Shown here in pieces: positions 8,676-54,557 of a stretch of DNA of 64,000 bases (the first letter of the stretch is position 1; every line of letters begins with the position of its first letter). This DNA is from an uncultured Gammaproteobacteria bacterium (lineage in GTDB: Bacteria > Patescibacteriota > Patescibacteriia > CAZGFX01), in contig CAZGFX010000002.1 in NCBI GenBank assembly GCA_964524845.1, positions 157,422 to 221,421 on the forward strand. Reading direction: 5' to 3'. The position numbers and the translations under genes were made by a program. The notes under the pieces are model-generated. The model saw only the letters and a list, made by a program, of their open reading frames with translations. It was not told the origin of the DNA and did no database searches.

Positions 8676-11432
8676 TCACTTCCCGTGACAATGTTTATAT
8701 TTAACAGGTGTTCCATCGGGTTTTTTTGCTCCACATGGACATGGTTCGTTGCGACCTATTTTTTCAACGTGTTCCGGTGTCAAAGAAGTGTTGGATTCGT
8801 TTTTCTTTTCCATTGTTTCAGAGGCTCCTGTGAGAACAAGTTTTTGTTCTTGTGGTTTTTGCACCAAAACAGCCGGATCGTGTGATACTTTCGTAAACTT
8901 GAATATATTATAAACAAACTCATTCTGAATACTATCAAGAAGTCGCATAAACATCTGATATCCTTCTCGTTTATACTCAACAAGCGGATCTTGTTGCGCA
9001 TATCCCTTTAAACGAATACTATCTTTCAGATGGGCCATATATGACAAGTGGTTTGACCAAAGCCTATCAAGAGATTCTAGATAAAGTCCCATTTCAAGAT
9101 TCGTCATCATATCATCGCCATACGAAGCAATGACAGCACTCTCAAGTGTTTTATATTTCTCACGAGCCAAATTCGCAATATATCCAAACAAGGCACTACG
9201 AGCAACCATATCCTGCATAGAATTACCAGCTTGTGCTCTTATTTTTTCAATCTCTGCAACAAAAGTGTTTTTATCTACGTCAAATATAGTATTAACGGTT
9301 TCATATACCTCTTCCGTGTTCCATTGTTTCTCATTGTTTTCAACTGTGTAAAACGAGACAACCTGCTCTATTTCTCCGTCAATAAGATCAATAGCCCAAT
9401 CGCGCGTATTAACAATTGCGCGCTTACCATCAAGCGACGGTGGAGCGATGGCTTCGTTTCTGTTTACAACCTGAGTATCGTGAATATGGAACAGTTCGTT
9501 ACGACGTCCATAAATTGTAGCTCGTTGTTTATTTAGTACATCATCATACTCAACAACGTGTTTACGAGCATCAAAATGATGTCCCTCAACACGTTTTTGA
9601 GATTGTTCAATTGCTTTGGTAATAATTTTGTTTTCAATTGCTTCATCTTCACGAACCCCAAGTCGCTGTACCATATTCTTCATACGGTCAGAACCGAATA
9701 TTCTCATTAAATCATCTTCGAGTGACACAAAAAATGTCGACATACCAGGATCTCCCCATCGTCCAGTACGTCCACGAAGCTGATTATCAATACGCCTTGA
9801 TTCGTGTCTCTCTGTTCCAATAACATATAATCCACCAAGTCCCTTCACTTTTTCAGCTTCTGCAATTTCAGCATTATCACCACCTAGTTTTATATCAACT
9901 CCGCGACCAGCCATATTTGTTGCTATTGTTACCGAACCAACTTTTCCGGCTTGTGCAATAATATCAGCTTCTTTCAAGTGATTTTTTGCGTTAAGAAGTG
10001 CATGTGGTATACCAGCTTTCGAAAGCATTTCGGAAAGCTCTTCGTTTCGCTCAATTGAAATAGTACCAACGAGCACTGGCTGGCCTCTTTTGTGCGATTC
10101 TGCAATTTCACGTACAATTGCTTTCATTTTCCCATTGTGAGTTGAGTATATTCTGTCATTAAAATCTTTTCTTCCAACAGGTTTAAAAGGAGGAATTGGT
10201 ATTACCTCAAGAGAATATATATTAATAAATTCTTCTTCCTCTGTTTTTGCCGTACCCGTCATACCAGCAATCTTTTTATACAAACGGAAATAATTCTGAA
10301 AAGTAATTGTGGCAAGTGTCTTTGATTCTTGTTTTACTTCAACACCTTCTTTTGCCTCAATCGCTTGGTGAATACCATCTGAATAACGACGACCCTCGAG
10401 CATACGACCTGTAAACTCGTCAATAATTTTAATTTCCCCATCTTGTACTATATAATCCTTGTCTTTTGAAAATAAAAACTGTGCTTTAAGAGCCGCTTCA
10501 AGATTGTGTACCATTGCTATTCCAGACTGATACAAATTATCAATTCCAAGTATTTTTTCGACTCTCATTACACCGCTTGTTGTCAAAGTAACCGCGCGCA
10601 TCTTTTCATCAATATTAAAATCTTCATTAACAGTAAGCTGACGAGCAATCGTCGCAAAACGCACATAAAGATCATTACTATCCTCTGCTGGAGCCGAAAT
10701 AATGAGCGGTGTACGAGCTTCATCAATCAAAATACTATCAACCTCATCGATAATCGCATATGCTAATCCGCGCTGACTTTTGTATTTTATTGATTGAGCC
10801 ATGTTATCGCGCAAATAATCAAATCCATATTCATTGTTTGTTCCATATGTAATATCAGCTTCGTATGCCTCGCGGCGCGATGCGGGACGCAAGTGTCTTA
10901 GGCGCTCATCATGCTGTCCTTCATCAACATAAGTTGGATCATATAAAAAAGTCGCGTGTCCAATAATAACACCCGTCGTAAGACCAAGAAAATGATAAAT
11001 CTGCGCCATCCACCCCGCATCGCGCCGCGCCAAGTAATCATTAACCGTCACAACATGCACACCCTCTCCTTTTAATGCATTTAGCACGACAGGAAGAGTA
11101 CAAACAAGTGTTTTTCCTTCTCCAGTAAGCATCTCTGCGATTTGTCCTCTGTGCATAACAATGCCTCCCATAAGCTGTACATTACGATGAGAAAAACCGA
11201 GTGTACGTTGCGCCACTTCTTTTACAATTGCAAAGACTTCATTAAGTACATCGTTCGTATTAGATTCACCAGTACGCACTCGTTCTCGAATAGACGCAAA
11301 CTCATCCTGAAGTTGAGCATCAGGCATTTGTCGATATTTCGATTCTAATGATTCGATTTCAGCAACGTATACAGCCAATTTTTTGACATACTTCACATCC
11401 GGATCACCAAATATTTTTTTCCACAGATTCAT
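8676..11432 (-). CDS. secA: preprotein translocase ATPase SecA (start taken at MNLWKKIFGD, 18 codons inside the longer frame)
   Basis: About 918 aa; DEAD-like motor (MAQIYHFLGLTTGVI, LTGEGKTLV), preprotein cross-linking and helical scaffold regions, and a C-terminal Zn-finger tail CPCGAKKPDGTPVKYKHCHGK. Confidence 0.95.
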   Translation of the reverse strand: MNLWKKIFGDPDVKYVKKLAVYVAEIESLESKYRQMPDAQLQDEFASIRERVRTGESNTNDVLNEVFAIVKEVAQRTLGFSHRNVQLMGGIVMHRGQIAEMLTGEGKTLVCTLPVVLNALKGEGVHVVTVNDYLARRDAGWMAQIYHFLGLTTGVIIGHATFLYDPTYVDEGQHDERLRHLRPASRREAYEADITYGTNNEYGFDYLRDNMAQSIKYKSQRGLAYAIIDEVDSILIDEARTPLIISAPAEDSNDLYVRFATIARQLTVNEDFNIDEKMRAVTLTTSGVMRVEKILGIDNLYQSGIAMVHNLEAALKAQFLFSKDKDYIVQDGEIKIIDEFTGRMLEGRRYSDGIHQAIEAKEGVEVKQESKTLATITFQNYFRLYKKIAGMTGTAKTEEEEFINIYSLEVIPIPPFKPVGRKDFNDRIYSTHNGKMKAIVREIAESHKRGQPVLVGTISIERNEELSEMLSKAGIPHALLNAKNHLKEADIIAQAGKVGSVTIATNMAGRGVDIKLGGDNAEIAEAEKVKGLGGLYVIGTERHESRRIDNQLRGRTGRWGDPGMSTFFVSLEDDLMRIFGSDRMKNMVQRLGVREDEAIENKIITKAIEQSQKRVEGHHFDARKHVVEYDDVLNKQRATIYGRRNELFHIHDTQVVNRNEAIAPPSLDGKRAIVNTRDWAIDLIDGEIEQVVSFYTVENNEKQWNTEEVYETVNTIFDVDKNTFVAEIEKIRAQAGNSMQDMVARSALFGYIANLAREKYKTLESAVIASYGDDMMTNLEMGLYLESLDRLWSNHLSYMAHLKDSIRLKGYAQQDPLVEYKREGYQMFMRLLDSIQNEFVYNIFKFTKVSHDPAVLVQKPQEQKLVLTGASETMEKKNESNTSLTPEHVEKIGRNEPCPCGAKKPDGTPVKYKHCHGK

Positions 11433-11483: not shown

Positions 11484-11518
11484 CAAAAAATAAATGAAGG
11501 CCGCCTTTCGGCGGCCTT
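11484..11518 (-). terminator. intrinsic terminator after hpf (GGCCGCC-TTTC-GGCGGCC hairpin plus U-tract on minus strand)
   Basis: Perfect 7-bp GC stem at 11499-11516; on the minus strand it is followed by TTCATTTATTTTTT. Confidence 0.7.
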
Positions 11519-11529
11519 TTCTTCTTATC

Positions 11530-12989: not shown

Positions 12990-13032
12990 AATTAAAATGA
13001 AAACGCCATGCTGTTCACTAACAACATGGCGT
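12990..13032 (-). terminator. intrinsic terminator downstream of the OM-barrel gene
   Basis: ACGCCATG...CATGGCGT 8-bp stem (13003-13032); minus-strand U-tract TTTTCATTTTAATT follows. Confidence 0.55.
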
Positions 13033-13046
13033 ATTTTAATAATTTC

Positions 13047-14117
13047 TTAATATCGCACCCCTATGCTGAGTTGCAAGGGATTTGCGGTCATTTCAGTCTT
13101 TGTGAACCCGCCGACATAGTATCCGGCGGAAAAGTCCATCCTTTCGTTGATGGTAAAACCCATCCCGAAAGTTAAGCGTGTTCTACCTCCTGCGGCTTCT
13201 GTCTCCGTATAGAGTCCTATACGAGTGCTAAACACCCTTTCTTCTCCATACAGGGTTTCAAAGCCTATGCTATGTCCGGTATACCGCAATGGCTTTTTCG
13301 TATGAGGCTTGAGTAGTAAAAGCGATACATCGTAATGCATACGAGTCATCGTATTTTCACTCTCAAATATAGGCATAATACCTCCAATATGCGCGGTCAC
13401 AGGAAGCGCATCATGAACACCTTTTTGGTAGGACAATCCTTTACCAAAATACATGTTCATAACACTTGCGCCGACTGCGTACCGGCCCTCATCAAAAACA
13501 CCGATAAGGCCGACATCAAACGCGAATGCGTCAGATGGTCCAACGCCTCGAAACTCATCGCCTCGAGTATCAGAAACTTTTTTAGAGAAAAGCTCAGAAT
13601 ATAGATACTTGGCTCCTAGGCCAAATGACCAATACTCATTAAACTTGATCCCAGCTGTCGTATGAAATATCATTTCATACTGTCGCCAAGTTCCAAGTTC
13701 GTCTCCGGCTTCGTTCAATATGTCGCTCTCACCAAGATCGAGATATTGAAAGCCATATCCAATGGAAATAGGATAAGCCATGTTTTGAGGAGTCCATGTA
13801 CCGTAAACACTCCCCATCCACATATCAAATCCCATTGCAGGATTAATACGCGAATAATTGAGATCGGCAGTGTTAAAAAAATCGCCTCTCTCAGTCGTAC
13901 GAAAAGCGTTTGCACCGAAGTGAGCTGGATTGAAATAAAATCCAGCACTTCTAGCATCGCTGTAAGCAACACCACCCATGCCCATACTTGAAACACGCGG
14001 GTCGGGAATGAGTTGCAGTACGGGCGCCGATGCAACACTTTGCGCAGACAAAACAGACACAAAGGTGCAATTTAAAAAAATTGCAGAAATTGTAAAAAGA
14101 ACAAAAAACATTTTCAT
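13047..14117 (-). CDS. FadL/OmpP1/PorV-family outer-membrane beta-barrel protein
   Basis: 356 aa; signal peptide; mature N-terminus PVLQLIPDPRVSSMGMGGVAYSDARSAGFYFNPAHF parallels the FadL hatch (FQLNE..SGLGRAYSGEGAIADDA..NPAL, NPA motif); alternating amphipathic strands; C-terminal beta-signal ...LQLSIGVRY ending in an aromatic residue. GC is about 45-50% against about 34% in neighbours. Confidence 0.7.
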   Translation of the reverse strand: MKMFFVLFTISAIFLNCTFVSVLSAQSVASAPVLQLIPDPRVSSMGMGGVAYSDARSAGFYFNPAHFGANAFRTTERGDFFNTADLNYSRINPAMGFDMWMGSVYGTWTPQNMAYPISIGYGFQYLDLGESDILNEAGDELGTWRQYEMIFHTTAGIKFNEYWSFGLGAKYLYSELFSKKVSDTRGDEFRGVGPSDAFAFDVGLIGVFDEGRYAVGASVMNMYFGKGLSYQKGVHDALPVTAHIGGIMPIFESENTMTRMHYDVSLLLLKPHTKKPLRYTGHSIGFETLYGEERVFSTRIGLYTETEAAGGRTRLTFGMGFTINERMDFSAGYYVGGFTKTEMTANPLQLSIGVRY

Positions 14118-14240
14118 TTTTTCATCTCCTTGCCATGCAAAATGCAGTGGCTTTTTAATTTGTTTGATTTATTTTTTAATTTGTTTATCATCACATCTTA
14201 AAACAAAATAATGATTTTGTCAACAAACTGTGCATAACCA

Positions 14241-14288
14241 AAAATACAACAAAAAAACCACGTTTTCAAGCCAAAAACATGGTTTTTT
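14241..14288 (-). terminator. hairpin plus U-tract terminator downstream of the acidic-protein gene
   Basis: AAAAAACCACG / CATGGTTTTTT arms (one mismatch), followed on the minus strand by TTTTTTTGTTGTATTTTT. Confidence 0.4.
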
Positions 14289-14305: not shown

Positions 14306-14692
14306 TTAAATATCCTCCTCTTCTAAATCTTTTGATTCTTTTGAAATTGATATCTTTTCAACAGATGTGATTCTTTCATCGATATATCCTAACGCTTGTT
14401 CTATCTCTTTTTCCAATCCATGCGGAAAAGCATCGTGCTGATAAAGATGATTCACCGCTTCCCACGCGACAATAGGAGCTGGTTTTTCAGCCACATTCAC
14501 ATTCTCAGTAACCCAATCTAGAAGTTCCTCTGCGTTCGACTCAATGTTTCTGCTCGTATAAAAACTATCCCAATCATAATTTTCTATCACCTGATTTACA
14601 AATTCGGCAATATCCTCTTCTTCGTCATACGGCGGAATGGAGCTAAGATCTTTTATATCAAACTCTTCTTGAACATCTTCGTCTAACATCAT
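14306..14692 (-). CDS. acidic hypothetical protein (128 aa)
   Basis: ORF with strong acidic bias (EEFDIKD...DEEEDIAEF); no recognisable family. Confidence 0.45.
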   Translation of the reverse strand: MMLDEDVQEEFDIKDLSSIPPYDEEEDIAEFVNQVIENYDWDSFYTSRNIESNAEELLDWVTENVNVAEKPAPIVAWEAVNHLYQHDAFPHGLEKEIEQALGYIDERITSVEKISISKESKDLEEEDI

Positions 14693-18019: not shown

Positions 18020-20590
18020 CTATATCGAAAAACCTAATCTATCAGCCACCTCATGATCAACAATTTCTTTCGGCCTACCATATTTGAAACGAGAAAGTTC
18101 TCGGAGAGCTTTTACAAGTTCAGGATTACCACTTTGTGGAGGATAAATTATCATATTAAAAGGATTTGTTGGAACACTATTTATAAGTGTTTTTATATTA
18201 ATTGTATAAGCATCAGGATTCATCAGGTCATATGCAGTAAATATAGGATCGAATTCTTTTGCAATTTCTTCAGCATCCTCGACTCCAATACGATACACAC
18301 CCATCGTACCAACGTTTCCGAAAACAGCATCTTTTATCTTCGTGTCATTGCCTTTTATAAGCTGGGCTAAATATTGATGCGCAATAATTAATCCTAGCTT
18401 GTATTTTCTAGCTTCTGACAAAATAACACCTATACTATCTGTAACGAAATTTTGAAATTCATCCATATAAAGATAAAAATCTTTTCGCTCGCTTTCAGAC
18501 ATACTCGCACGAGATAGTGCAACCATTTGCAACTTACTTACCAATATCAAACCAAGAAGTGCCATATTAGCATCTCCTATCTTTCCTTTTGAAAGAGATA
18601 CGAGAAGAATTTTCTTTTCATTCATTATTTGTTCAAAATTAAAAGAACTTTTGCGCTGGCCAATTACATTGCGCATAATTTTGTTTGTAACGAAAGGCCC
18701 AAACTTCGAACTGAAGTATGGAATCATTTCTTGTTTTTCTCTATCTCCTGTCTGTGCATACTCGTTCTCCCAAAAATCCCTTACAGCAGGATTTTTAACA
18801 TTTTTTGTGTGTTCTTCCGTAAATTTTGGATCAGTGAAAAGACGCGGAATATCAATAAGCGTAGCTCCATATTCAGGATTTTCCATAAGAGTCAAGCATC
18901 CGTTTCGAAAATAATGTTGTAAACGAGGTGAGAATATTTCTTCTCCAAAAATTTTAATGAATATCTGTGTTGCTTCAAGCGCCGCCATATCAGCTTCGGC
19001 AGGAGAATTAATATCAAGCAAATTCAAAGACATCGGTCTATCTAGATCAGCTGGATCGAATACTATTACATCATCTGCTCTTTCTTTTGGAATATTTGCC
19101 AGAATACCATCAATAAGATCTCCGTGCGGGTCAACAACACAAACACCATTTCCGTTTCTTATATCTTGTATGACAAGGTTCTGCAAAAGAACAGACTTTC
19201 CTGTGCCTGATTTTCCTATAAAATACATGTGTCGCATTCTATCTTTATTATCTATGCGTATTGGAATGTCTTTACCCTGATATTCAACATGCCCCAACAA
19301 AATACCTTCGTTTGGAATATTTGAAGGTGGTGGTGGTTTTTTACCTTGCATCCACTCTATTGCAGGAACATCGTTGTTTGGAAGAGGAAAATGAAACAAT
19401 GTTGCCATCTCTTCAACATTTACAATTAATTTAAAATGTTCATCAAATCTGCGATGAATAAAATCAGACACGAACTGTCTTGACGACCCCATTGTAATCG
19501 CCTGAAACATATTTCCATACTGATAAATCGCATATTGGGAAAACGCATTAATAATATTCTGAAGATGAGCATCAACACTTCCCTCCGCAGTACCCGAAAC
19601 GACCACGCGAACATTGAGATCAAGTCCTGCTTTTGATGATTTTTCTTGTATATTTTTCGCCATCTCTTGTTCTTGTTGCGACAGGCTTATGGATTTCTGT
19701 CCTTCAAGTTGTGGAGAAAGAGACGAAGGAGTAAGAACATCCCCGAGTTTTCCGGTAATTTTTACGAACGAATCAACTCCCGTCTTACCGATTCCCGCAT
19801 CACGCATCGCCTGATCAATTCTTTTCCCCTGACTCATCTCACGTGCTACCTTATCACCTGAATTATGCCAAGATTTATGAGCAGAACGCATTATAAACTG
19901 AATTGCAGCTCCTTCGTTTTTTGGATTAAGTCTCGCAATTCCACTAACAATCGTCGTAAGAGGATCAGCCTCCATCTTCTTGTAAGACTTTATTGGAAAT
20001 ATATATGACTGTGAAAGTTTAAGATAAGCGCCTTTCACGATTGAGTCCGGACGAAATATATTATAATCAGTTACATCTTCAACGCGCGCATCAGGATATG
20101 TCGCATGAATATTTTCTTCTATATATGACTTCAAATTTGCCGGAACTACAAAATAAAAATTAATTCGCCCGTGATTCATAACAATTTCACACGCAACCGT
20201 ATCCTCACGACCAAAAAACCTTGATTTCCAACTGATCTTTGGTTTAAGTCCTCCTATACTTAAAAACAACATTTCTGCATAAGCGATGGAATCCTGCATA
20301 AATTGAGCACTATCCTGATTTTGCGCTTCAGAATATTTTTGCAGAGTTATTTTCATCACAATATTCGTCATGCCATATTTCTTTTTGTATTTACGACGAA
20401 CAATTATTTGAACAATGATTATCAAAATCATGATGACAATCAATAATCCAATTCCTATAAGTACCCACATAATCATTGGGTTATTTGCCCAATACCAAAA
20501 CAATCCTGACTCATCAGCATAAACACCGCTTGATAAAGATGGTGTCGTTGGTTTACCTAATGGAGTAATTGCAAAAATAGTCCAAAACAT
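18020..20590 (-). CDS. membrane-anchored VirD4/TraG/TraD-like (type IV coupling protein / HerA-FtsK-like) P-loop ATPase
   Basis: 856 aa; N-terminal TM (MIMWVLIGIGLLIVIMILIIIVQIIV), Walker A YFIGKSGTGKSVLLQNLVIQD, Walker B-like FYLYMDEFQNF, arginine-finger-like region toward the C-terminus. Confidence 0.55.
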   Translation of the reverse strand: MFWTIFAITPLGKPTTPSLSSGVYADESGLFWYWANNPMIMWVLIGIGLLIVIMILIIIVQIIVRRKYKKKYGMTNIVMKITLQKYSEAQNQDSAQFMQDSIAYAEMLFLSIGGLKPKISWKSRFFGREDTVACEIVMNHGRINFYFVVPANLKSYIEENIHATYPDARVEDVTDYNIFRPDSIVKGAYLKLSQSYIFPIKSYKKMEADPLTTIVSGIARLNPKNEGAAIQFIMRSAHKSWHNSGDKVAREMSQGKRIDQAMRDAGIGKTGVDSFVKITGKLGDVLTPSSLSPQLEGQKSISLSQQEQEMAKNIQEKSSKAGLDLNVRVVVSGTAEGSVDAHLQNIINAFSQYAIYQYGNMFQAITMGSSRQFVSDFIHRRFDEHFKLIVNVEEMATLFHFPLPNNDVPAIEWMQGKKPPPPSNIPNEGILLGHVEYQGKDIPIRIDNKDRMRHMYFIGKSGTGKSVLLQNLVIQDIRNGNGVCVVDPHGDLIDGILANIPKERADDVIVFDPADLDRPMSLNLLDINSPAEADMAALEATQIFIKIFGEEIFSPRLQHYFRNGCLTLMENPEYGATLIDIPRLFTDPKFTEEHTKNVKNPAVRDFWENEYAQTGDREKQEMIPYFSSKFGPFVTNKIMRNVIGQRKSSFNFEQIMNEKKILLVSLSKGKIGDANMALLGLILVSKLQMVALSRASMSESERKDFYLYMDEFQNFVTDSIGVILSEARKYKLGLIIAHQYLAQLIKGNDTKIKDAVFGNVGTMGVYRIGVEDAEEIAKEFDPIFTAYDLMNPDAYTINIKTLINSVPTNPFNMIIYPPQSGNPELVKALRELSRFKYGRPKEIVDHEVADRLGFSI

Positions 20591-25227: not shown

Positions 25228-25872
25228 TTATTGCTCTTCTCCACCAGACTTTTTCTTAGTAAAAACCATGGCCAATATAGGACCCATAATCCACCAAAAA
25301 AGCGCTGTATCACCTGTAAAAACTTGTTTTGTGAACGGAGCCAAAGAATTGATCGATTCTTTCGGTAAAAATGAAAGTACGATGGCGATAAGCAATCCGA
25401 CATGTAATATAGAAAATATCATCACCTGCCACCACGATCCTTTTTGTTCGTTGTTTCCAACAATCGTATTAAGCAATGCCGAACGAGAAATTATGAAAAA
25501 TAGAATAACAAATATCCCTATAAATGAAGATATTTTTATAACAAAAAGATTTTCTATTCCGAAGTTTGTCTCGATTGGATTTTTTATAAACGGCGCGTAA
25601 TTCATAACAGCCAAAGACATATAAATACTCACGAGAATTGTCACTATGCGATCACGCCCGAGCGACATACCATAAAGAAGTGCCGCGACCACGAAAAATA
25701 ATATAATAAACAAATCCCATGATGGATTAGACCAATCAATAGATGTCATTGCATTCTGTGTGTGCACAATCGCTTGATTTGCTGTATCAGTAACAACCGG
25801 CGGAACTTGTATTGTTTGAACGACTTCTTCTACTCCTTGTGCATATGCACTCTGAATCAGAGAAAAAAACAT
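25228..25872 (-). CDS. hypothetical polytopic membrane protein (214 aa)
   Basis: Five or six predicted TM helices; no named motif. Confidence 0.5.
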   Translation of the reverse strand: MFFSLIQSAYAQGVEEVVQTIQVPPVVTDTANQAIVHTQNAMTSIDWSNPSWDLFIILFFVVAALLYGMSLGRDRIVTILVSIYMSLAVMNYAPFIKNPIETNFGIENLFVIKISSFIGIFVILFFIISRSALLNTIVGNNEQKGSWWQVMIFSILHVGLLIAIVLSFLPKESINSLAPFTKQVFTGDTALFWWIMGPILAMVFTKKKSGGEEQ

Positions 25873-31041: not shown

Positions 31042-31230
31042 ATTAAAATATATTACTTATTCACGTACTGGATTATGGCTTATTTTACAATAAAAGTGAA
31101 GTCCTGATTCTTTTTTTTCCATATATTTATACACTTTAAATTAATATGAAAAACAAAACAATCAAAAAAAGCGAATAAAAGCCAAAAAGATGAGGATTTT
31201 TAAGTTTTCCACACATAATAAACAATAGAC

Positions 31231-31259
31231 TTGACTTTTTAGGAAGGATGATGTATGCT
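31231..31259 (+). promoter_or_regulatory. near-consensus sigma70-type promoter TTGACT-17-TATGCT
   Basis: TTGACT at 31231-31236, exact 17-nt spacer, TATGCT at 31254-31259; predicted TSS about 31266. No protein gene lies downstream on this strand. Confidence 0.5.
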
Positions 31260-31341
31260 GTTAACACTTGCTTAATGCGAGATTAAATAACTGAAACAAG
31301 AACAATTAGAAATCCGTTGTAAACGGAGAAGGAGCACGCAA

Positions 31342-31398
31342 ATGGCAAGAGCATCCCCGCTCAATAAAATGAGCAGAACGTCCTTTGAAGAGAAGTAA
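31342..31398 (+). CDS. micro-ORF MARASPLNKMSRTSFEEK (18 aa) with GAAGGAG SD, 7-nt spacer
   Basis: gaGAAGGAGcacgcaaATG; codons verified to TAA at 31396-31398. Confidence 0.25.
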   Translation: MARASPLNKMSRTSFEEK

Positions 31399-31823
31399 CC
31401 CGGCCCGCGACCGCACGCCAGCCATAACCCGAAAAACTCGGTCGGCTGTCTGAGCAGCGGTCAAATCGGGAACGCGCCCGCAATCCAATTTGTATAATGA
31501 AAAAATTGGGCGCACTCCCGGCTCGAAAAAAAATCCGCAAAACAATGATCGCGGAACAAAAAGTCCGGAAAAACTCCGGCACGATGAAAAACAACAAGAA
31601 AAACGGGGATTCAGAAATGAAATTAGATCACGGCTAGATTTAGGGGCAAAAGAAAAGCCCCGAAAAAAGCTTCGAAAAGAGGCATAAACCGGAGATTATT
31701 TTAAAAAAACAACACAAACCTCTCCGGGAAAAAAATCCGGCAAACCGGCAATCATATGCGGCACCAAAAACCATGGAGGCTACAGTGAAAATGAGATACG
31801 GTTGAATGCAATAAATTACATAT

Positions 31824-31862
31824 AAGTCCTTGTTATAATGACAAGGACTTTTCCGTTTTTTT
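31824..31862 (+). terminator. strong intrinsic terminator (AAGTCCTTGT-tataatg-ACAAGGACTT plus TTCCGTTTTTTT)
   Basis: 10-bp perfect stem at 31824-31850, U-rich tail 31851-31862. Confidence 0.8.
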
Positions 31863-31982
31863 AATAACAAACATTGATATTTTTATATTTTTATATACAA
31901 TTAACACAGCCTGCTTGACAGGTACAAATAACCTAAATAACCGAACAAGAGCAGTCTTTGATGACTGTAAGGAGCGTGTATC

Positions 31983-32033
31983 ATGGTTAAGATCAGAGGT
32001 CAGACGTCTTATCTTAAGATGTCGAAAGCGTGA
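31983..32033 (+). CDS. micro-ORF MVKIRGQTSYLKMSKA (16 aa), TAAGGAG SD, 8-nt spacer
   Basis: gtAAGGAGcgtgtatcATG; stop TGA at 32031-32033. Confidence 0.25.
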   Translation: MVKIRGQTSYLKMSKA

Positions 32034-32122
32034 AAGCGAAAAGAAAAAGGCCGCTGTTTCTCCTCGTTTATCAGCATGATTTTGCTGAAACCACGGAAAA
32101 AAAACATGGAAGGAGGTTCATT

Positions 32123-32170
32123 ATGAACCGCATCCGTGCCCAAAACAACCTGCATCAAAAAATGATGTAA
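32123..32170 (+). CDS. micro-ORF MNRIRAQNNLHQKMM (15 aa), GGAAGGAGGT SD, 5-nt spacer
   Basis: catgGAAGGAGGttcattATG; stop TAA at 32168-32170. N-terminus M-x-[KR]-I-R-[GA]-Q is shared with the previous micro-ORF. Confidence 0.25.
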   Translation: MNRIRAQNNLHQKMM

Positions 32171-32293
32171 GCGCCAAAAAAGCAAGGTCTCACCCAAGAA
32201 GTACTGGTCACTCCATTTATCGCAACAAATTAAGCGCGGTATAGAAGCGTGCCAAGAAAAACTTGGAAATAAAAACATGAAAGGAGTTTCAAA

Positions 32294-32314
32294 ATGAAAC
32301 GAAATTATGGCTAA
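32294..32314 (+). CDS. micro-ORF MKRNYG (6 aa), AAAGGAG SD, 7-nt spacer
   Basis: catgAAAGGAGtttcaaaATG; the upstream context aaaaacatgRAAGGAG repeats that of the previous micro-ORF. Confidence 0.15.
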   Translation: MKRNYG

Positions 32315-32380
32315 CCCTTCTCACAAAGACAAAAGGTTTTGTCAAAACTCGAGAGCGAGAACGATATAATAATTATAAGA

Positions 32381-32411
32381 CCCCACCCGAAGAGGTGGGG
32401 CATTTTTTATT
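32381..32411 (+). terminator. intrinsic terminator (CCCCACC-cgaaga-GGTGGGG plus CATTTTTTATT)
   Basis: 7-bp all-GC stem at 32381-32400 with U-tract. Confidence 0.75.
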
Positions 32412-32565
32412 GAAAAATAAACAATATTAAAAAATAATTTAAAATAGCATTTTTAAATCGATAAATATTGCACCAAACCCATATTGACAAATACATCATC
32501 AAGTCGAAACAAATTAACAATACTCACACAAACATAAATATTATTCATTCGTTTCTCATTTCAAT

Positions 32566-32592
32566 AAAAAATGCCCCGGTTTTTAACCGAGG
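32566..32592 (-). terminator. terminator downstream of the subtilisin gene
   Basis: Minus strand GCCTCGGTT-aaaa-AACCGGGGC (8/9 bp) followed by ATTTTTTATT. Confidence 0.5.
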
Positions 32593-32611
32593 CAATAATA
32601 GTCTACGCATT

Positions 32612-34096
32612 TCATTTTACGATTGTGAGTTTTTTTGAGACAGGTTTCATGTGTTCAGACTGAAGTCTATATATATATATTCCTGAACTGACCGCATGAC
32701 CATCATCGTTTCTACCATCCCATGTGATGAAGTGTCTTCCCGGATACTGATATGCATCAAAAAAAGTTCTGACCTTCTGTCCGAGTGTATTATATAGAAT
32801 TACAGTGGTACGACCAGGTCGACTGATTACATACTCGATCGTAGTTGATACATTGAACGGATTAGGATAGTTCTGATTGAGTTCCACAGATGGTTTTTGA
32901 AATGATCCCCTCTCTGGAAATATCGCTTCAAAAATTTTTGGCAATGACACAGCATTCTGGCTACCACCATCTTTATCAAGCGCAATGTTTCCGTTTTCTC
33001 TTATAATGTTTTTTATATCAATATTCTTTCCTGTCATAATCATAAGAGCAACGATTCCTGCAACTTGCGGGGCGGCATAACTCGTACCATCAACCCTGTG
33101 ATATCTAGAACCACACCATGTGGTCAGTACCTTGTTTCCAGGAGCAAACGCATCAACACTACCGAAATTAGACCAGTAAGAAACAGTTCCTACGGAATCG
33201 AGACTTCCTACTGATATGACGGATTTGTATCCGTTCGTTGAAATACGACCAAAATTCGTATAATGAGCTGGAAATACGGACATGTTCCATCCTTCGTTTC
33301 CGGAAGAGCACACGAAATAAATCTGAATTCCTGCAGAATCCGCTTTTTGTTCAGCGGTACGAATTAATTCTTCCCACGCCATAAGATCAAATTTTAAACC
33401 AAGACTCCAATTGATAACAAGATTTTTCTTGTTTTGAACAGCCCACAGAATTCGATCGTTTGCGGCAATAAGGATTGTACTTACATATCCATATCCATTG
33501 TCTTCGAGCACTCGCACCGCATACACATCTCCACAAGAAATACCGAATACTCCTTTTTTATTGTTCGCAGTAGCGCCGACAATGCCGGCTATTTCCGTAC
33601 CATGAACAAAAACCTCTTTCGGAACATACTCCATGGAATCTCCGTGTAGAACAGTATAGTTTTTCCCAAGTTTTATATTCTGAAGATCTTGATGTTCAAT
33701 TACCCACTTATCAGATCGTCGAACAAGTTCAATTCCGGAGTCATGAATATCAATCACAGTGTTTGACGGATCCAAAAGGTCGCCGTACTTTTGAAATACT
33801 GAAAAGAGTTCCATGTATTCAATAGCCCAGCTTCGCAATGGATCATTCGGATCAAACCGATATTGAGTTTTGTTTGACCCATATGCGGTCACCAAAGCAT
33901 CTTCTTCAATAACCTCAACTGAAGTGGTTTTTAAAAAAGATTTTGTCTCAACCTTGTACCAACTTCCAAACACATGCACCGCATTATTTGGAATATCTTT
34001 TTCGTTTTTCATCTTTATCAGATATCCTTGAGAATATCCTGAAAAAGAAATCAAAAAAGAAAAAGCAATCGTAATAATTACTTGAAATGTTCTCAT
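32612..34096 (-). CDS. secreted subtilisin-like (S8) serine protease with type IX secretion system C-terminal sorting domain
   Basis: Signal peptide; HGTEIAGIVGA (His box), GTSYAAPQVAGIVALM (Ser box); C-terminal 85 aa LNQNYPNPFNVSTTIEYVISRPGRTTVILYNTLGQKVRTFFDAY...ITWDGRNDDGHAVSSGIYIYRLQSEHMKPVSKKLTIVK is the Por_Secre_tail/T9SS type-A CTD pattern (NYPNPFN...G-Y-Y-L...KK-L-K). Confidence 0.85.
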   Translation of the reverse strand: MRTFQVIITIAFSFLISFSGYSQGYLIKMKNEKDIPNNAVHVFGSWYKVETKSFLKTTSVEVIEEDALVTAYGSNKTQYRFDPNDPLRSWAIEYMELFSVFQKYGDLLDPSNTVIDIHDSGIELVRRSDKWVIEHQDLQNIKLGKNYTVLHGDSMEYVPKEVFVHGTEIAGIVGATANNKKGVFGISCGDVYAVRVLEDNGYGYVSTILIAANDRILWAVQNKKNLVINWSLGLKFDLMAWEELIRTAEQKADSAGIQIYFVCSSGNEGWNMSVFPAHYTNFGRISTNGYKSVISVGSLDSVGTVSYWSNFGSVDAFAPGNKVLTTWCGSRYHRVDGTSYAAPQVAGIVALMIMTGKNIDIKNIIRENGNIALDKDGGSQNAVSLPKIFEAIFPERGSFQKPSVELNQNYPNPFNVSTTIEYVISRPGRTTVILYNTLGQKVRTFFDAYQYPGRHFITWDGRNDDGHAVSSGIYIYRLQSEHMKPVSKKLTIVK

Positions 34097-41750: not shown

Positions 41751-44700
41751 TTATTGGTTTTCTACCATACTTACATCTGTTCCCGTTTCGCTCGTAGGAG
41801 TTGTTTCGCCTGATGATGTTGTGGTCACAGGAGTTGAAACAGGTTGATCAACAATAACTGGAGAAGCTGGGGTTTCCGGAATAGGCTCACTTGTTTCTAT
41901 TATCTCCGCAAGCGAATCTGTTGGTGGTGTTGGATTGTTTATATATATTGGTACGTTTGGATTTATCGTATCGCGATTAATCTGATCTGTACCCACTTCG
42001 AATGCGAGCCATGTCACATCAACAAACTTCGCACAACCAGGTTCAGTCGCGACATCACACACGGGCTCTGACATCTCTATATCAAAACCTTCTTCGGTTT
42101 GATTACTTACCCATACGCGTCCTTTCCACGATCTAGCAGTATCAGGATCTTCAAACTTCGGCGTCAATGAAACAAGAACCTCATTTTTTTTCGGTGCGAC
42201 AAATGCAATATGTTGTGTTATTTGATTATATGAAAATCTAACAGACCCTGCCACATCTTTTGAAACAACCGAGAGACCACCTTTCAATTCAAGATTCTTT
42301 TCAAGTGTTACTGCATCCCGTACGACAAGTGTTCCTTGTATTTCAACATTTCCTTTCACGACAAGATCTTTTTCAAATACCGCTTTTTCTTTCACAACAA
42401 GAGCACCCGTCAAAGACATTATTGCAACATCAATTTGTAAACCATCTCCCAAAGACCATTTATTGTATTGAGGATTAATGTCTTCAACAATATTTTGTAC
42501 GTTAGGATCTGGTGTTTGCTGAACATCGCTTGGATCAATATAGACTCCTTGTATATCTCCTGCGCTAGGCTGTACCTGAACATCATCATCGCCTTCGACT
42601 ACTTCTTCGTCATCAAAAACAAGACTTAAACCATATAATTCATCAGTCGTGGCCATTCCAATCCAATATTGCGGTTGAACAAAAACAATAACTGAATTAG
42701 TACTTGGTTCAATACCCGAACTCCATCCGCTCATCGCCTGTCCGACAACGAATCCAGGACCGGTTGCTTTGATAGCATATCCTGGCATATCAGGAGATGA
42801 AGATAGATAATCACCAGTCACAATATCAGCAGAATGATTTATATCAATCTTCACAGGTACTCGACCGACAAGCACGACAAGTTTTGAAGACTGATCGTCA
42901 GAAGTTGTTTCAAGTGTTGTGTTTGGATGTTCCGTAACAACTCCGATAACACTCTTACCAGATGTACGAGTTGCTTTAACAACCGACTCCGAATCAGACG
43001 GATCAATTGAAACCAAATCTCCTTGTTCTATTGATAAATCACCAACTTGATAATACTTAGCGAGATCAAATACTTGTCTATTAAGTTCATTTAAAGCACC
43101 GACAATTGATGTTGATGTGAATGTCCCATCAAGTTTCGTATTTGTATCATCCGCAAGCGCGATTGGTGATTCTGTGTGTGAATCAGCAAGTCCGTTTCCT
43201 ACATTTACGGTATCAGTCACTACTATATTTTTCGCAGTGAGTGTTCCTGCTCCGTTTGTTGAAATCAGCCCTCCGTCTGATGAGAATGATCCGATGGTAA
43301 GCGTACCACCAGAAATTCCGCTAGTTACAGCTAAATTATTGACCGATAGTGTTCCTAGTCCGTTTGATGTAATAAGACCATTATCAGATGAAAATGAGTT
43401 TGTTTTTATTGTGCCTGTTGTAATATTTCCCAAACCATCTGATTGTATTACTCCTCCGTCAGACGAAATTTTTGGCAATGAAAGCGCAAGCGTTCCGTTC
43501 ATAAGAGGATCGAGAATATTTGTTTTTGTTTTTTGCATCTCTTTGAGAAGCAACACGGATAGAATTTCATAATGAACGGAATCTGGGCGACCCTGATTAT
43601 CGAAAAACACAAGCTGAGGAAGAACTTCCGCTGCTTCTTCCGCAATCAAACCAAATGTCCTATTCTCTGGTAGATCAGGAAGCTCGTTTGGCGTATAACT
43701 TACTGGTCTCAAATCAAATATTTTCGATGTATCAGTTTCTATATCTGTAATACTCTTTTTATATCGTCGTGATGATGTATATTTAAATAATTGATTACTA
43801 CCATTTATATGAATAGCAGTACCTGCCGTACCACTCGAAGGAAGTCCATCAAAAGCAACTGTACTACTAGCATAAAAAGATCCTTCTATTTCTGTATAAC
43901 CCAAAAACGAATCTCCATTAACAAAAAAATCATTATCAGCTTCCAATCTTCCACCATAAAAATAGGCATCCCCATCTGAGGTAATAGAAAATCTGTTCAC
44001 ACTGTTTGTTTCTATATTAAAATCATTTGGGCCTGAGTTGGAATAAACTAAAACATTAGTATCGGAAAAAGCTATCTGTGGATCCTCGCTAGTAAGAAAA
44101 AGACTTCTATTCATATCTATGGAAGATCCGATTGTTATATTACTATCATCCGGGTCACCTAATATTAATTCGCGACCACTATATGAGACTGTAAGTGCCG
44201 TACCAGTCCAAGCACCACCATCACCTGACATAGACATTTTAAACTTACTAATATTAGGTGCAGAAGTATCAATACCCATAGAAACAGTATCATCGCCTGA
44301 TTTAAACATTAAAGTAGCATCCCCGGTACCCATTTGTTCTATTTTCAACATTGGTGTTGTTTCGGTACTGTTTTCATATATATGAAAATTTGCACTTGGT
44401 GCATTTGTGCCTAATCCAAATCTAATACTCGTTCCATTATAACCAGTATATCTAATATAAGAGTCTTCAAAATATCCTAATTTCATCTCTAAAGAATCAT
44501 CGTAAATTCCAGATAAATTTACCGATCCATCGCTAGGCATTACTCTAAAAAAACCATAAGAATTATCAAAAGTTGGCGGGTAAGATCCATCATTAAAACC
44601 TATAACAAAATCGTCATAAGATGTCGAACTATCAATACCCATTACATAATGTCCTGATGAAGACGATGTGTCAGAAACAAATCCAATTGCCGGATCTCCT

Positions 44701-47700
44701 GTACCAGCTTGTTGCAACATAAGCATAGGAGTTGTCTGTGTAGAGTTTTCATACAAGTGAAGATTCGTACTTGGAGTAGCAAAACCAAGTCCTATATTTC
44801 CACTCGAATCAATAACAAACCTATCACTTGTTCCAAGTCCTGTCGTGCTTATTTTAAACTTATCACTATCAGAATCATCTACGCCCATGGTAAATGAATT
44901 CGTTCCTTCAGCAAGTTGAAACCCAATCGCAGTATCATAATCACCTGCATTTGTGTTTACAACAAAAACATTTGTGTTTATAGCAGATGAAGATGCTACA
45001 TCAAGCATTGCATCTGGCGACGTATCACCTATACCCATATATCCATTACTGTTTATACGCATTCTTTCATAAAGATCACCATTAAGTGATGTTTGCAATG
45101 AAAAATAACTGTCTCGTGTCGAAGCGGTATCGTTCCACGCACCCTCAGTCCCAACGATAATTCGCGCCGACCCATCAACTCCTGGATCATCCACGGATCC
45201 TGAAAACCACTGATTAAACAAAACTCCTGTCTGTGTATTAGAAGAAGCTTGTCTTGTGTTCGTTATCTCAATAAAATCTGTAAGACCTCCATCAGTTCCC
45301 GTTTGTTCTATATCAAGAAGTGACGATGGTGGATATAATGGATTAGAAAAAGCTCCTACTCCAACAAGTCCGCCACTTGTTACAGATAAACGACGTGTTC
45401 CTGCTGTCGTGAGATCAATGGTATCTGCTCCAGATGAGTATACACCAGTATTTGTATCTCCAACAAAAGATATTGAAGGATTTCCTACTGCACCCAGAGG
45501 ATGATAAGCGTATCCACTTGAATTAACTTGAAACAAATCCCCACTACCGACTGTGAAGAGTGACGCAGGAGACGAATCTCCTATACCAACATATCCTGCA
45601 TTATCAACACGCATAGCTTCAATCATGCTTCCTGTATTTCTTACATTAAAACGCATCGACGAGACACCAGAATTAACACCCGCACTCTCCCAAACAGTAT
45701 CTATACTTCCGGCTTCAAGTCCCATACCATCATTATCCTCAAGATATGTGACAATTCCAGACCCAAGTCCTGTATTATCCATTGATGGACGAGTTACGTT
45801 CATAGTCAGTGTATCAATCACAGTGGCTGTGGTATTTGCTTTTGACAAATGAAGAATACTAGAAGGAGTATTCGTTCCTATTCCTATATTTCCACTCGAA
45901 TCAATTACAAACCTATCGTTTGTACCAAGCGCTGTTGTAGATATTTTAAACTTATCAGAATCAGAATCATCAATACCCATAGTAAAAGTATTTGTTCCAT
46001 CAGCGAGTTCAAAACCTATTTGAGAATCGTAATTTCCTGCATTCGTATTTGAAATTGTAAACTGAGTATTTGCTGCACCTGATGACATAATTTCAAGAAG
46101 TTGATCTGGTGTTATGTCTCCTACACCAACGTTTCCTCCATAAAGAAGTGTCATAACAGTGTTTGAAAGCGTCTGCCCATTAGTTGTGCCAGAAGAAAAA
46201 GCCAGATCGTTTGTATTCTGTTTGTGTATTGTCCAATCACCATATCCTCCTCCTTGATTATCAAATGTCAACCAGTTATATACACTTGAGTTTGCTTGAT
46301 TACTAGAAATAGTAAACTTACTATAAGATGTTGCCGTAGTACCAACACTTATGTTTCCAGAAGAATTAATCGTCATACGATTTGTTCCTCCTGTAGCAAA
46401 ATCTAGGGCATCTGCTCCTGATGAGTATATACCAGTGTTCGGATCACTGACAAAAGACACCGACGGTGTTCCTACTGCTCCGAGAGGATAAAGCGCATAT
46501 CCACTTGAATTAACCTGAAACAAATCTCCATTTCCGACTGTGAGAAGTGATGCTGGTGTCGCATCACCAATACCAACATTTGCGCTTAATATGTTCACAT
46601 AATCTGTCGCTTGATCATCGAATGCTATTCGTCCGGCAATTGATCCAAGACCCAACCAATCATCGTCTGCATTCGCATCAGAAAAAGCATCACCAGAAGT
46701 CATAGAACCAACAGATGTTACATCACCTGTTCCAGCAGATACCCATGTTAAATTTCCACTTCCATCGTTTCGAAGAACTGTATTTGATGAACCCTGAGAA
46801 CCAGGCCACGAGTATGTTACATTATTAACTTTTACGATGTTTCCGGATGAGTTGACTTGAAACAAATCACCATCTCCAACAGTAAATAAAGACGCTGGCG
46901 TTGCGTCACCAACACCAAGGTTTGCGCTCATTATATTTACATAATCGGTGGCCTGATCATCAAACGCAACTCGTCCAGCACTTGCTCCAAGTCCGAGCCA
47001 ATCATCATCAGCATTCGCATCCATAAAAACATCCCCTCCTGTCATAGAACCGACTGTTGTAATATCTCCTGTTCCTGAACCCGTAACCCATGTGAGTGTT
47101 CCGCTTCCATTATTGCTTAATACAGTACCTGCACCTCCTTGTGCTGACGGCCACGAGTATGTAACATTATTAACTTTTACGAGGTTTCCTGATGAGTTTA
47201 CTTGAAATGTATCTCCGCTACCTACTGTAAGAAGAGATGCTGGTGTCGTCTCTCCAATACCGACGTTCGCACTCAAAATATTTACATAATCGGTAGCCTG
47301 ATCATCAAAAGTAATACGTCCAGCAGCTGCTCCAAGTCCAAGCCAATCATCATCAGCATTCGCATCCATAAAAACATCTCCCGATGTCATAGAACCAACC
47401 GTAGTTATATCACCAGTTCCTGAAACGGTAACCCAGGTAAGATTACCACTTCCATCGTTTCTTAAGTATGTGTTTGATGCTCCCTGAGAAGCTGGCCACG
47501 AATATGAAACATTATTTACTTTTACAAGATTACCGTATGAGTTAACTTGAAATAAGTCTCCGTTTCCAACTGTGAAAAGAGATGTCGGTGAAGAATCTCC
47601 TATACCAATATATCCTTCATAACTAATTCTAAAAGCCTCTGACATTGAGCTGTTATTCATGTGATTAAATATTACAGAGGCTTTTTCTCTTGTTTCACGA

Positions 47701-50700
47701 GGATCCTCCCACACGACATCAATTCCAGCCGCCTGAGACAAACCATCTTGATCGTTTTCCAAATAAAATCCAATGCTGGCACCGAGTCCTTGAGCACCAG
47801 AACTATCATAATTTATTCTCTCTATACGTAACGCCTCCATAATATCAGACGCATCATTCTGAGAAAGAACCGAGAGTGTAGAAGCCGGAGTACTTGTACC
47901 AACACCAAGCCTATTATTTGTATCATCCCAGAATAGATTTGAATTATCTTGAGTGTACACACCACTTCCCCCAGCAAATACAAGTGAGCCCGATGTAAAT
48001 TGAGTACCGGTTCCTGTACCGCCTCTTGTAACATTTAAATATTGTTCTGATGTTAATGAGTTTGTTCCATTCCAATACGCTATATATCCGTTTGTTCCTG
48101 TTCCTGTTGCAACAGTTCCTGATGTTGGAAGCGTAATACTTGTAGCTCCTGATGTTGTAAAAAATAGCGTGTTCCCTGCAGTACCAAGAGGAACAACACC
48201 GGTATTATCTTGAAAAGTTATCGTCTTATCAGATACTGTTGGATCTGTTATAGCAAATGTTGTTTCGTATGTGTTGTCTGTTGCTCCTTCAAAAACCAGA
48301 GGAGAGGCACCTTGAATAACACCTCCGAGAGTCAGTGCATTAGAAGCGTTTCCGATCGATACAGCACCAGTTGATGTCCCTGTGTTTATATTTGTAGTAA
48401 AGTTTGAACTTGCATTTATAGAAGACGTTGCTCCTGACACAGTAAGTCCTCCTGTTCCTTGTATAACTCCTGTTGTTGAGTTAACACCAACAAAAGATGC
48501 TGCACCAGCACCTGAAACAGACCATTGTCCATCTGTAATAACAACATTTGCTGATGCATTTCCTATTGTAACCGTCCCCGTTGATGTACCGGTGTTTATG
48601 TTTGTAGCAAAATTTGAACCATGATTAATATATACAGTGTTTCCTGAAGTTACAAAAGAACCAGTGTTTGTAATACCCCGAACAGAAACTATTGCACCAG
48701 ATGAATTTACTTGAAACAAGTCTCCATTTCCTACAGTAAACAAAGAATCCGGAGATGAATCACCCACACCAACGTTTCCTCCATTAAAAACAGCAGAATA
48801 TGTGTTGTCACGACTATTTGCAGTATCAGTATCAACATATAAACCTGTAATTGTGTTTCTATATCCTCCAAAATCATCGTCTATGTTTATATGCATACCA
48901 TACACGGTGTCCACATAATCCTCGTTTTGTGGATTGTTTGAAATATTTAATTTATATCCATATAGTGTAGCAATATCACTTGGATTCATTGTTACATTAT
49001 GAGAAATACTTGAGGAAGCATCGGTTTGTAGATCTAAAGAGGTCAAACTAAGAACGGGATTTGTTACATCGCTTGACGAAATAGATATTGTATCATCTGT
49101 AATAGATGGCGAAAGGTTTGTTCCTGATCTGGTCCAATATCCCAGCGTTCCTGTTGATGGTGGTGTTGTAGTAAGATACCCTGAAGAATCAGTATATACA
49201 CCACTTTCCGTACCGAGCGAATTAAATAAAATATTTCCTGATGATGCTAAACCAGTGAGACCTGATGCGACACCGGCTGACGACACGTCCCACGATGATG
49301 TGTTTATAGCGAGCGTGTTTGATCCACCACCGATTGATACGGCGCCGGTTGATGTTCCTGTATTTATGTTTGTCGCGAAATTAGAACTTGCGTTCAATGA
49401 TACTGCTCCACCCGAGCTTGTCACTGCTCCAGTGTTTGTAATTCCTTGAACAGATGCTATTGCGCCAGATGAGTTGACTTGAAAAAGATCTCCGTTCCCT
49501 ACTGTGAAAAGAGATGCAGGAGTTGTATCTCCGATACCAATATTTCCTGCAGGAGTGATATTTAAAAATTCGTTCGTTCCTTCTAGAATACGCAAATTAC
49601 CTTCGCTTGACCCATCTGTTTCTTGTATACCGATTTTCCAATCGCGAGCAGTCGTTGTTTCGGCTGCGGTTGAATATACATGAAGCGATGATGGTCCTAA
49701 ATATAAATCTCTCCAACGCAAAGAAGACGATCCGAGATCATAAGAATCATCACTGTTTGGTCCAACTGATCCGGCAACTTGTAATTTAAATGTCGATGGT
49801 GCACTTGTGCCAACACCAACGTTTCCACTACTATTAACATATAAACTATTTACAGATGCGCCATCCTCAATTACAAAAACATTGATACTACCTCCTGTCG
49901 TATCTTGAATTCTAAAATCATCGTTTGCATTCACACCCATTTTCCATTGCCTAGCATCATTAATAAAATCAAAATCAGCAGCTCCATTAAGACCTGTATT
50001 TTCTATTCTTCCTGCAATATAACTTCCGGCCGCTGATCCAGAAACATGCAATCTTTGTTGAGGACTAGCAGTCCCGATCCCAAGCCTATTATTCGTATCA
50101 TCCCAAAAAAGGTTTGTATTATCTTGTGAGTACACTCCGCTTCCTCCAGCAAACACTAGTGATCCTGAAGTAAACTCAGTACCTGTACCGGTACCACCAC
50201 GTCCAACAGAAAGGTATTGTTCTGATGTTAATGAGTTTGTTCCATTCCAATACGCGACGTATCCATTTGTACCAGTTCCTGTTGCCATGGTTCCTGATGT
50301 TGGAAGAGTTATGCTTGTTGCTCCTGATGTTGTAAAAAATAGTGTGTTCCCTGCAGTGCCAAGAGGAACAACACCGGTATTATCTTGAAATGTTATTGTC
50401 TTATCAGATGCAGTGGTATCAGTGATTGAAAATGTAGTCTCATAAGTATCGTCTGTAGCTCCTTCAAACACAAGAGGAGAAGCACCCTGAATAATACCTC
50501 CTAGAGTTAATGCATTAGAAGAGTTTCCAATTGATACAGCTCCTGTTGATGTGCCTGTGTTTATATTTGTCGCAAAATTAGAATTTTCGTTGATAGATGA
50601 CGAGGCACCAGACACAGTAAGTCCTCCTGTTCCTTGTATAAGTCCTGTGGTTGAATTAACACCGACAAACGAAGCTGCACCAGCACCTGAAACAGACCAT

Positions 50701-54554: not shown

Positions 54555-54557
54555 ATA

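Follow-up and report, generated by a model that had tools for sequence, protein, structure and literature searches.

The window analysed here, a stretch of DNA of 64,000 nt whose coordinates we count from its first letter, carries on the minus strand at 13047..14117 an open reading frame (ORF) of 356 amino acids that lies between dnaX-o128 and the conserved murB-hpf-secA block. Sequence comparison and structure prediction identify its product as a genuine PorV/PorQ-family protein with a FadL-type fold, a predicted beta-barrel of 14 strands with an N-terminal plug. An initial annotation of this DNA had drawn the ORF at exactly these coordinates and had taken it for a FadL-fold barrel of the PorV family, and profile hidden Markov model (HMM) searches agree: NCBIfam NF033709 (PorV/PorQ) matches with 114.5 bits, above its cutoff of 90, and aligns residues 30-354 with positions 3-324 of the 326-position model, and Pfam PF19572 (PorV) matches marginally, with 28.7 bits against a gathering score of 27. 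PF19572 is also present in the precomputed annotation of an identical protein. No match to Pfam Toluene_X (PF03349, FadL) was listed for the barrel protein at E values up to 10.

When the protein is aligned with 78 homologues, it is identical to the family in 27 of the 28 columns with a conservation of 80% or more, the exception being a Phe-to-Val replacement. These columns comprise an N-terminal P-x-L...PD-x-R...MG...NPA motif and Gly, Asn, Pro, Glu and Arg positions of the barrel. The first 25 residues (MKMFFVLFTISAIFLNCTFVSVLSA; 14043..14117, minus strand) read as a Sec signal peptide with Gln at position +1, and the ...AQ... junction that this implies is common to the barrel protein and its homologues. 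Residues 31-65 (APVLQLIPDPRVSSMGMGGVA ... FNPA; 13923..14027, minus strand) align with the family consensus PFLxIxPDARxxGMGxxGVA...NPA as a predicted N-terminal plug or hatch, in which L34, P38, R41, G46, N63, P64 and A65 are all conserved. The NPA motif to which the initial annotation had drawn attention corresponds to N63-P64-A65, the conservation of these columns among the homologues being 100%, 83% and 82%. The last predicted strand, PLQLSIGVRY (13050..13076, minus strand), ends in a terminal Tyr and is amphipathic, with alternate-position hydropathies of -1.6 and 4.1, as expected of the C-terminal beta-signal (...LQLSIGVRY) that had been proposed for it. Both this strand and the signal peptide were judged by sequence inspection and strand hydropathy only. 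The protein thus appears to have everything expected of an outer-membrane protein: an export signal, a plug, a barrel and a beta-signal.

The structural prediction is in keeping with this assignment. An AlphaFold2 model built on the homologue alignment has a predicted local distance difference test score (pLDDT) of 88.1 and a predicted TM-score (pTM) of 0.85, and comprises the N-terminal plug and, after it, 14 long strands along with one short loop hairpin (Met1 is absent from the model, the numbering of which is that of the protein minus 1). When the model was compared with the PDB using Foldseek, the top matches were the PorV chains 8gl6_F and 6h3i_F, with TM-scores of 0.73-0.75; FadL, TodX and TbuX rank behind PorV with TM-scores of ~0.5. 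Membership of the FadL/Toluene_X family proper was therefore rejected, there being no PF03349 match and a TM-score of only ~0.5; sequence and structure both side with PorV.

The gene forms a transcription unit of its own. A Shine-Dalgarno-like AGGAG (14126..14130, minus strand) was read from the sequence 8 nt 5' of the ATG, and farther upstream a promoter-like TTGACA-17 nt-TAAGAT (14195..14223, minus strand; 10 of 12 consensus positions) is located between the upstream terminator and the barrel gene; this site is a consensus-scan match and by itself no evidence of function. Two intrinsic-terminator-like hairpins on the minus strand bracket the gene, as the initial annotation had observed. The one that closes the upstream ORF o128 (14252..14288) has a 17-pair stem followed by a T run and a folding energy of -15.7 kcal/mol (z -4.0 against shuffled sequence), and the other, 15 nt past the barrel-gene stop (13003..13032), has a 13-pair stem followed by a T run and a folding energy of -22.3 kcal/mol (z -6.7). 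Given the bracketing terminators, the promoter-like site and the AGGAG, we read the gene, in agreement with its earlier description as a stand-alone gene, as a single-gene unit running from the promoter-like site to its own terminator. The further proposal that terminator flanking is a signature of acquisition is not supported: hairpin and T-tract terminators also lie 3' of hpf, o104 and several more genes within the initial 20 kb, so this arrangement alone is no mark of acquisition. The upstream neighbour o128 (14306..14692, minus strand) encodes an acidic protein of 128 amino acids that is without a family match in profile searches of the window proteins, and we regard it as insertion-site context rather than as a functional partner.

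To place the barrel protein among its relatives, we rely on a scan of 1.84 billion representative proteins with HMMER in filter-only mode, which gave 220 matches at E <= 1e-3, the best non-self match being 32% identical (E = 1e-16). The matches share the N-terminal motif PFLxIxPDARxxGMG...NPAGL. A word-indexed search for close relatives or a donor returned the barrel protein alone, and peptide-pattern scans with its sequence yielded no relatives in GTDB genomes or in JGI metagenomes. As a single query it has no match among PDB sequences; a 79-sequence profile that includes it matches Flavobacterium johnsoniae PorV (6H3I chain F) with E = 5e-107. It sits on a long branch, scoring 252 bits against the family HMM where a typical member scores ~380. 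The named relatives are from KSB1, Marinimicrobia and Bacteroidetes, all belonging to the Fibrobacteres-Chlorobi-Bacteroidetes (FCB) group. Among individual homologues, P0005 is located in a canonical type IX secretion system (T9SS) operon, with porU (C25), porV and a cargo protein bearing a C-terminal domain (CTD), and P0004 adjoins accA, a gene of fatty-acid synthesis that would not be expected in the candidate phyla radiation (CPR). The closest, P0003, lies on 2-kb contigs that give no informative context. We infer from these sequence relationships that the gene came from the PorV lineage of T9SS-bearing, two-membrane bacteria of the FCB group; the donor was possibly the CPR cell's host organism.

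The bacterium that now carries the gene appears to be Patescibacteria (CPR)-like, as the initial annotation had suspected, because its SecA resembles that of Patescibacteria and the order of genes around secA is shared with them. The top ~50 matches of SecA (8676-11432) are from Patescibacteria metagenome-assembled genomes (MAGs), with 48-54% identity, compared with 43-45% for Bacilli; the named best-match MAGs include Uhrbacteria, Magasanikbacteria, Kerfeldbacteria and others. The same Patescibacteria picture emerges when SecA is compared with JGI and ENA metagenome contigs, and the murB-hpf-secA order recurs in many of the Patescibacteria loci that match it. What the window encodes is in line with a small genome of CPR type, with many aminoacyl-tRNA synthetases, a VirD4-like coupling protein and giant surface proteins, and no biosynthetic genes were found among the window Pfam matches. 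Wall-binding surface domains of monoderm type (WxLIP_PGBD, LysM, PG_binding_1) are encoded in the window, and the flanks beyond its two ends (~9 kb and ~12 kb) carry fmt, def, priA, clpB and additional genes for surface proteins. No SecA relative above ~54% full-length or 60% partial identity was found in the genome and metagenome scans. SecA, MurB, IleRS, LysRS, TGT and MetRS are each the sole member of their own 90%-identity cluster among ~15 billion proteins; the lineage is very sparsely sampled and has no member among the GTDB r232 species representatives searched.

The composition of the barrel gene sets it apart from its surroundings. Its GC content is 44.1%, compared with 36.2% for murB, 37.9% for dnaX and 36.7% for the window. 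The excess of 10-15 points over its neighbours that had been claimed for it is thus too large for the whole gene, where it amounts to 6-8 points, and holds for third codon positions, where GC3 is 39.2% against 27.2 +/- 3.5% (an excess of 12 points, z 3.5). Its GC3 is the most extreme in the window, and in synonymous codon use it deviates furthest among 42 genes (z 5.9), which bears out the view that it is compositionally foreign, and the deviation consists of A-ending codons swapped for C-ending ones. The observed/expected CpG ratio is normal (1.15, compared with 1.13 for the other genes); the idea that CpG would carry the mutational signature of a GC-rich donor, as a sign of recent transfer, was accordingly dropped. 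The intergenic stretches around the gene are AT-rich, as in the rest of the window.

These data also admit a reading in which the gene is native or long resident, its oddity reflects high expression, and PorV-like barrels are an under-sampled envelope component of a subgroup of Patescibacteria. The shift from A-ending to C-ending codons in particular, together with the normal CpG ratio, would be explained in this way, and there is no close donor sequence. No flanking direct repeats were found at the barrel gene, no integrase or transposase occurs among the window Pfam matches, and no tRNA genes or Rfam families were found in the window, so that scars of a mobile element are missing as well. 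We nevertheless judge this reading decidedly improbable. In a set of 158 fetched loci (2.2 Mb, centred on secA, mostly from Patescibacteria with some Bacilli, and searched as all six-frame ORFs), the family HMM finds no PorV-family gene beyond the window copy and two loci fetched for P0003, and a tblastn search of the fetched loci likewise finds no PorV-like gene; this comparison covers secA neighbourhoods only. All named relatives, moreover, are from the FCB group, and the closest readable contexts, beside accA and in a porU-porV operon, are non-CPR.

A quite different account of the same compositional anomaly would be that a fragment of an FCB-group genome was joined into a CPR contig during assembly or binning. 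Apart from the anomaly itself nothing speaks for this, and we give it almost no weight. The gene lies inside its contig and is flanked on either side by housekeeping genes of CPR type, and the AT-rich intergenic regions match the window. The Logan assembly of SRR12133403 has the same gene order around the barrel gene, and the identical barrel protein and every housekeeping neighbour that we looked up are recorded on the same 309,728-bp NCBI contig. Because the Logan gene order, the NCBI contig records and a diverged allele from another JGI sample, with an upstream gene of the same length, all speak against a chimeric breakpoint, which the initial annotation had raised as a possible undoing of its proposal, we consider a chimeric contig unlikely.

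This second allele, P0002 (JGI 3300075153), comes from a different metagenome and is 91% identical to the window protein, with no indels. A 128-amino-acid gene is called directly upstream of it, as in the window, the match being one of length and position only. The 33 amino-acid differences between the alleles are mostly conservative and are unevenly spread: 9 fall in the 25 residues of the signal peptide and 24 in the 331 residues of the mature protein (Fisher p = 1.2e-4), making the signal peptide the fastest-diverging part. This clustering, the retained family residues and the confident fold together point to purifying selection on the barrel. The same observations run counter to the suggestion that the gene is awaiting loss, given the 27 of 28 conserved residues kept and the concentration of allele differences in the signal peptide. 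Acquisition probably preceded the divergence of the two sampled strains, and the gene would then be old, kept intact and strongly diverged. As no donor-like sequence exceeds 32% identity and the gene is older than the split of two alleles that are 9% apart and have an upstream neighbour of the same length, the claim that it was recently acquired is unsupported.

The window contains one further protein with a link to the T9SS. The gene at 32612..34096 (minus strand) encodes a predicted secreted S8 (subtilisin-family) protease (PF00082, E = 2.5e-26) with a C-terminal type A T9SS sorting domain, recognised by TIGR04183 with 32.7 bits against a cutoff of 23 and, above threshold, by FlgD_ig with 33.9 bits. 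It corresponds to the T9SS-CTD protease that had been reported 19 kb from the barrel gene and that we place 18.5 kb away, on the same NCBI contig. The CTD comprises residues 410-494, ...LNQNYPNPFNVSTTIEY...SGIYIYRLQSEHMKPVSKKLTIVK (32615..32869, minus strand), and these last ~85 residues share 45-58% identity with the CTDs of proteins labelled Calditrichota, KSB1, Zixibacteria and Fidelibacterota, members of the FCB group; the protease domain, unlike the CTD, is without a close relative. Neither the window nor the fetched loci, 2.2 Mb in all, yielded a further type A CTD, and the protease is the sole candidate ligand for a PorV-like barrel within the window. Flavobacterium PorV binds type A CTDs via extracellular loops, through plastic hydrophobic contacts whose sequence is not conserved (PMC10994853). 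Since such contacts are plastic, binding cannot be judged from conserved residues.

Two side observations concern the protease gene and its surroundings. The stretch of 1.57 kb that separates it from a ProRS-like gene (31042-32611) contains no ORF of more than 89 amino acids, has strong hairpins and shows a positive AT skew. We considered whether it holds co-acquired remnants of a T9SS island and rejected this, its short ORFs giving no Pfam signal and no Rfam family being found at threshold; it could be made up of decayed genes, small ORFs or RNA of a new type. Secondly, Gln directly follows the predicted signal-peptide cut in the barrel (…VLSA|QSV), in the S8-CTD protease (…GYS|QGY; 34015-34096) and in the PorV homologues. 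Its occurrence in both T9SS-related window proteins resembles the 'Q-rule' of Bacteroidota. It is not exclusive to them, as the window protein encoded at 25228-25872 (AYA|QG) has it too.

Taken together, we favour, at somewhat better than even confidence, the reading that the gene encodes a foreign, FCB-derived barrel of the PorV branch, that it is old, and that it has been kept and constrained in a CPR chromosome for PorV-like binding of CTDs outside the cytoplasmic membrane. Sec would export the barrel, which would insert into a lipid layer outside the cytoplasmic membrane; the receiving membrane could be part of the cell's envelope or the outer one of a host that has two membranes. There it may act as PorV does, its surface loops binding a type A T9SS CTD, so that barrel and S8-CTD protease would constitute a minimal receptor-cargo pair without a T9SS translocon. 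The likeliest activity would be either PorV-like binding of the S8 CTD or FadL-like handling of a hydrophobic ligand, and the gene was presumably kept because it is functional.

Several points weigh against this reading. The protein falls short of both equivalog models, scoring 75.2 bits for PorV (NF033710, cutoff 250) and 29.2 bits, as a partial match, for PorQ (NF033711, cutoff 220), although these scores of 75 and 29 bits do place it nearer PorV than PorQ. In one long loop past residue ~270 the protein has 25 columns fewer than most homologues. The portion of the genome read amounts to ~85 kb, the window together with its two flanks, and in it there are no genes for BamA, LptD, Skp, SurA, Lol or lipopolysaccharide (LPS) and no recognisable T9SS core (C25/PorU, SprA/Sov, PorK/L/M/N); with no outer-membrane or T9SS machinery there, the cell has no known way to fold or house a beta-barrel. 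The protease and barrel genes, 18.5 kb apart, are not co-transcribed, and the C-ending codon bias fits either a foreign origin or an expression-linked bias. The comparison of alleles is one at the protein level, and when 33 amino-acid changes were simulated under neutrality 17% of the simulations were without a stop codon, so freedom from stops alone is weak evidence. Finally, allele P0002 carries V354E, which turns the beta-signal ...SIGVRY into ...SIGERY and puts a Glu at a lipid-facing position of the classical signal recognised by the beta-barrel assembly machinery (BAM); this may hint that the C-terminus is constrained by something other than BAM recognition.

Much of this would be expected if the gene were a neutral passenger, received from a two-membrane neighbour or host, without a role where there is no outer membrane and not yet deleted. 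The lack of outer-membrane and T9SS machinery, the lone gene's absence from the related loci examined, its very long branch (<=32% identity), the shortened loop, V354E in the beta-signal of the second allele and the share of neutral simulations that stay free of stops all suit such a history. Small, streamlined genomes quickly delete useless DNA, however, and the protein retains 27 of 28 family-conserved residues despite extreme divergence and gives a confident AlphaFold2 model. Neither allele is broken or has indels, the changes between them are mostly conservative and cluster in the signal peptide, and the AGGAG, the promoter-like site and the terminator are all kept. We therefore regard a passenger as rather unlikely.

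The same missing machinery tells against a CPR lineage that has an outer membrane or an equivalent outer lipid layer, in which the barrel would be an ordinary resident outer-membrane protein. The signal peptide, barrel and beta-signal would be at home in such a cell, a T9SS-type cargo protein is also present, and envelope architecture has been established for few CPR organisms, few CPR envelopes having been described so far. Against this stand the lack of BamA, LptD, Skp, SurA, Lol, LPS and T9SS core genes in the ~85 kb, the Gram-positive-type wall-binding surface proteins of the window, the absence of the gene from the related loci examined, and published work, in which CPR are treated and have been surveyed as monoderm. 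We hold a two-membrane CPR cell to be highly improbable.

A more specific version of a functional role, which we advance as a speculation and consider quite improbable, is that the barrel and the CTD-tagged S8 protease form a host-derived toolkit of a CPR epibiont living on a T9SS-bearing, two-membrane host. In one mode, the Sec-exported barrel would enter the outer membrane of the host at the contact site and serve there as a plugged FadL-type portal or as a CTD receptor; in another, the CTD-protease of the epibiont would dock on the surface PorV of the host itself. If true, this would be the first monoderm symbiont to use outer-membrane-protein or T9SS parts in trans.

The preferred reading, a retained PorV-branch barrel of foreign origin, is of broader interest as CPR/Patescibacteria, which are held to be single-membraned, figure in arguments on the gain and loss of outer membranes. 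The gene provides a testable case of an unrecognised outer lipid layer, of a BAM-free beta-barrel, or of a symbiont protein aimed at the outer membrane of its host. Even if it is only a passenger, it still documents gene flow from the FCB group to CPR and may hint at the identity of the host.

The remaining observations concern other parts of the window. The minus-strand gene at 41751-52025 encodes a protein of 3,424 amino acids with a Peptidase_S74 (endosialidase chaperone) domain, and is followed at 52240-63939 by a run of large secreted proteins with PG_binding_1, TSP3, dockerin, Ig-like, WxL-interacting and LysM domains; past the window end lie further surface proteins, including some with Calx-beta and DUF4215 domains. 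The stretch 41751-63939 has the appearance of an island of surface or adhesion genes for an envelope of monoderm type. Within it, an ORF of 309 amino acids (53625-54554, minus strand), secreted or membrane-anchored and without a family match, overlaps by 82 nt the annotated start of the gene at 52240-53706 (minus strand), the true start of which is probably the internal Met of MKTFFYTINFF. A VirD4/TraG-like coupling ATPase of 856 amino acids (18020-20590, minus strand; T4SS-DNA_transf, TrwB_AAD_bind and DUF8128 domains) is encoded 4 kb from the barrel gene, and many Patescibacteria loci have homologues with 31-41% identity close to secA, though on its opposite side. Between hpf and secA, at 11497-11519, a perfect GC-rich palindromic hairpin, AAGGCCGCCGAAAGGCGGCCTT, has a terminator score on both strands, and transcription of murB-hpf-secA seems to break just ahead of secA.

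Of the systems already described, PorV of the T9SS is the one that the barrel most resembles in structure. Both have the 14-stranded FadL fold with an N-terminal plug, the same N-terminal motif and the same conserved Gly, Asn, Pro and Arg positions, and the genome of the barrel also codes for a protein with a type A CTD. In contrast to its counterpart in Flavobacterium johnsoniae, to which it is only 17-19% identical, the window barrel is shorter, with its 25-column loop deletion, has no adjacent porU and no SprA/Sov or PorKLMN within the ~85 kb read, and seems to belong to a monoderm CPR bacterium. The nearest sequence relatives, with 24-32% identity, are the PorV/PorQ proteins of KSB1, Marinimicrobia/Fidelibacterota and Calditrichota and UPF0164 (PF03687). 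The barrel shares the length class of these FCB-group proteins from outside the Bacteroidota (~350-375 amino acids), but their organisms are two-membraned and the window gene stands alone. FadL, TodX and TbuX share the fold class, the 14 strands, the N-terminal hatch and the NPA motif (Foldseek E ~1e-10), yet differ from the barrel model by an rmsd of 9-11 A at the TM-score of ~0.5 given above.

Outer-membrane-type barrels in unexpected places have some precedent. Sporadic genes for transmembrane beta-barrels have been reported in categories of organisms that include monoderms, namely Actinomycetia and Firmicutes (PMC10629564), and the likeness to the present case is that a barrel of outer-membrane type occurs where the lineage is not expected to need one; the difference is that these categories include members with two membranes or a mycomembrane. 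Full-text literature searches that paired PorV or the T9SS with Patescibacteria or CPR gave no relevant result. The protein family itself is already known, and what is unusual is its setting: a lone, apparently constrained barrel, together with a T9SS-type cargo domain, in a lineage that is held to lack an outer membrane.

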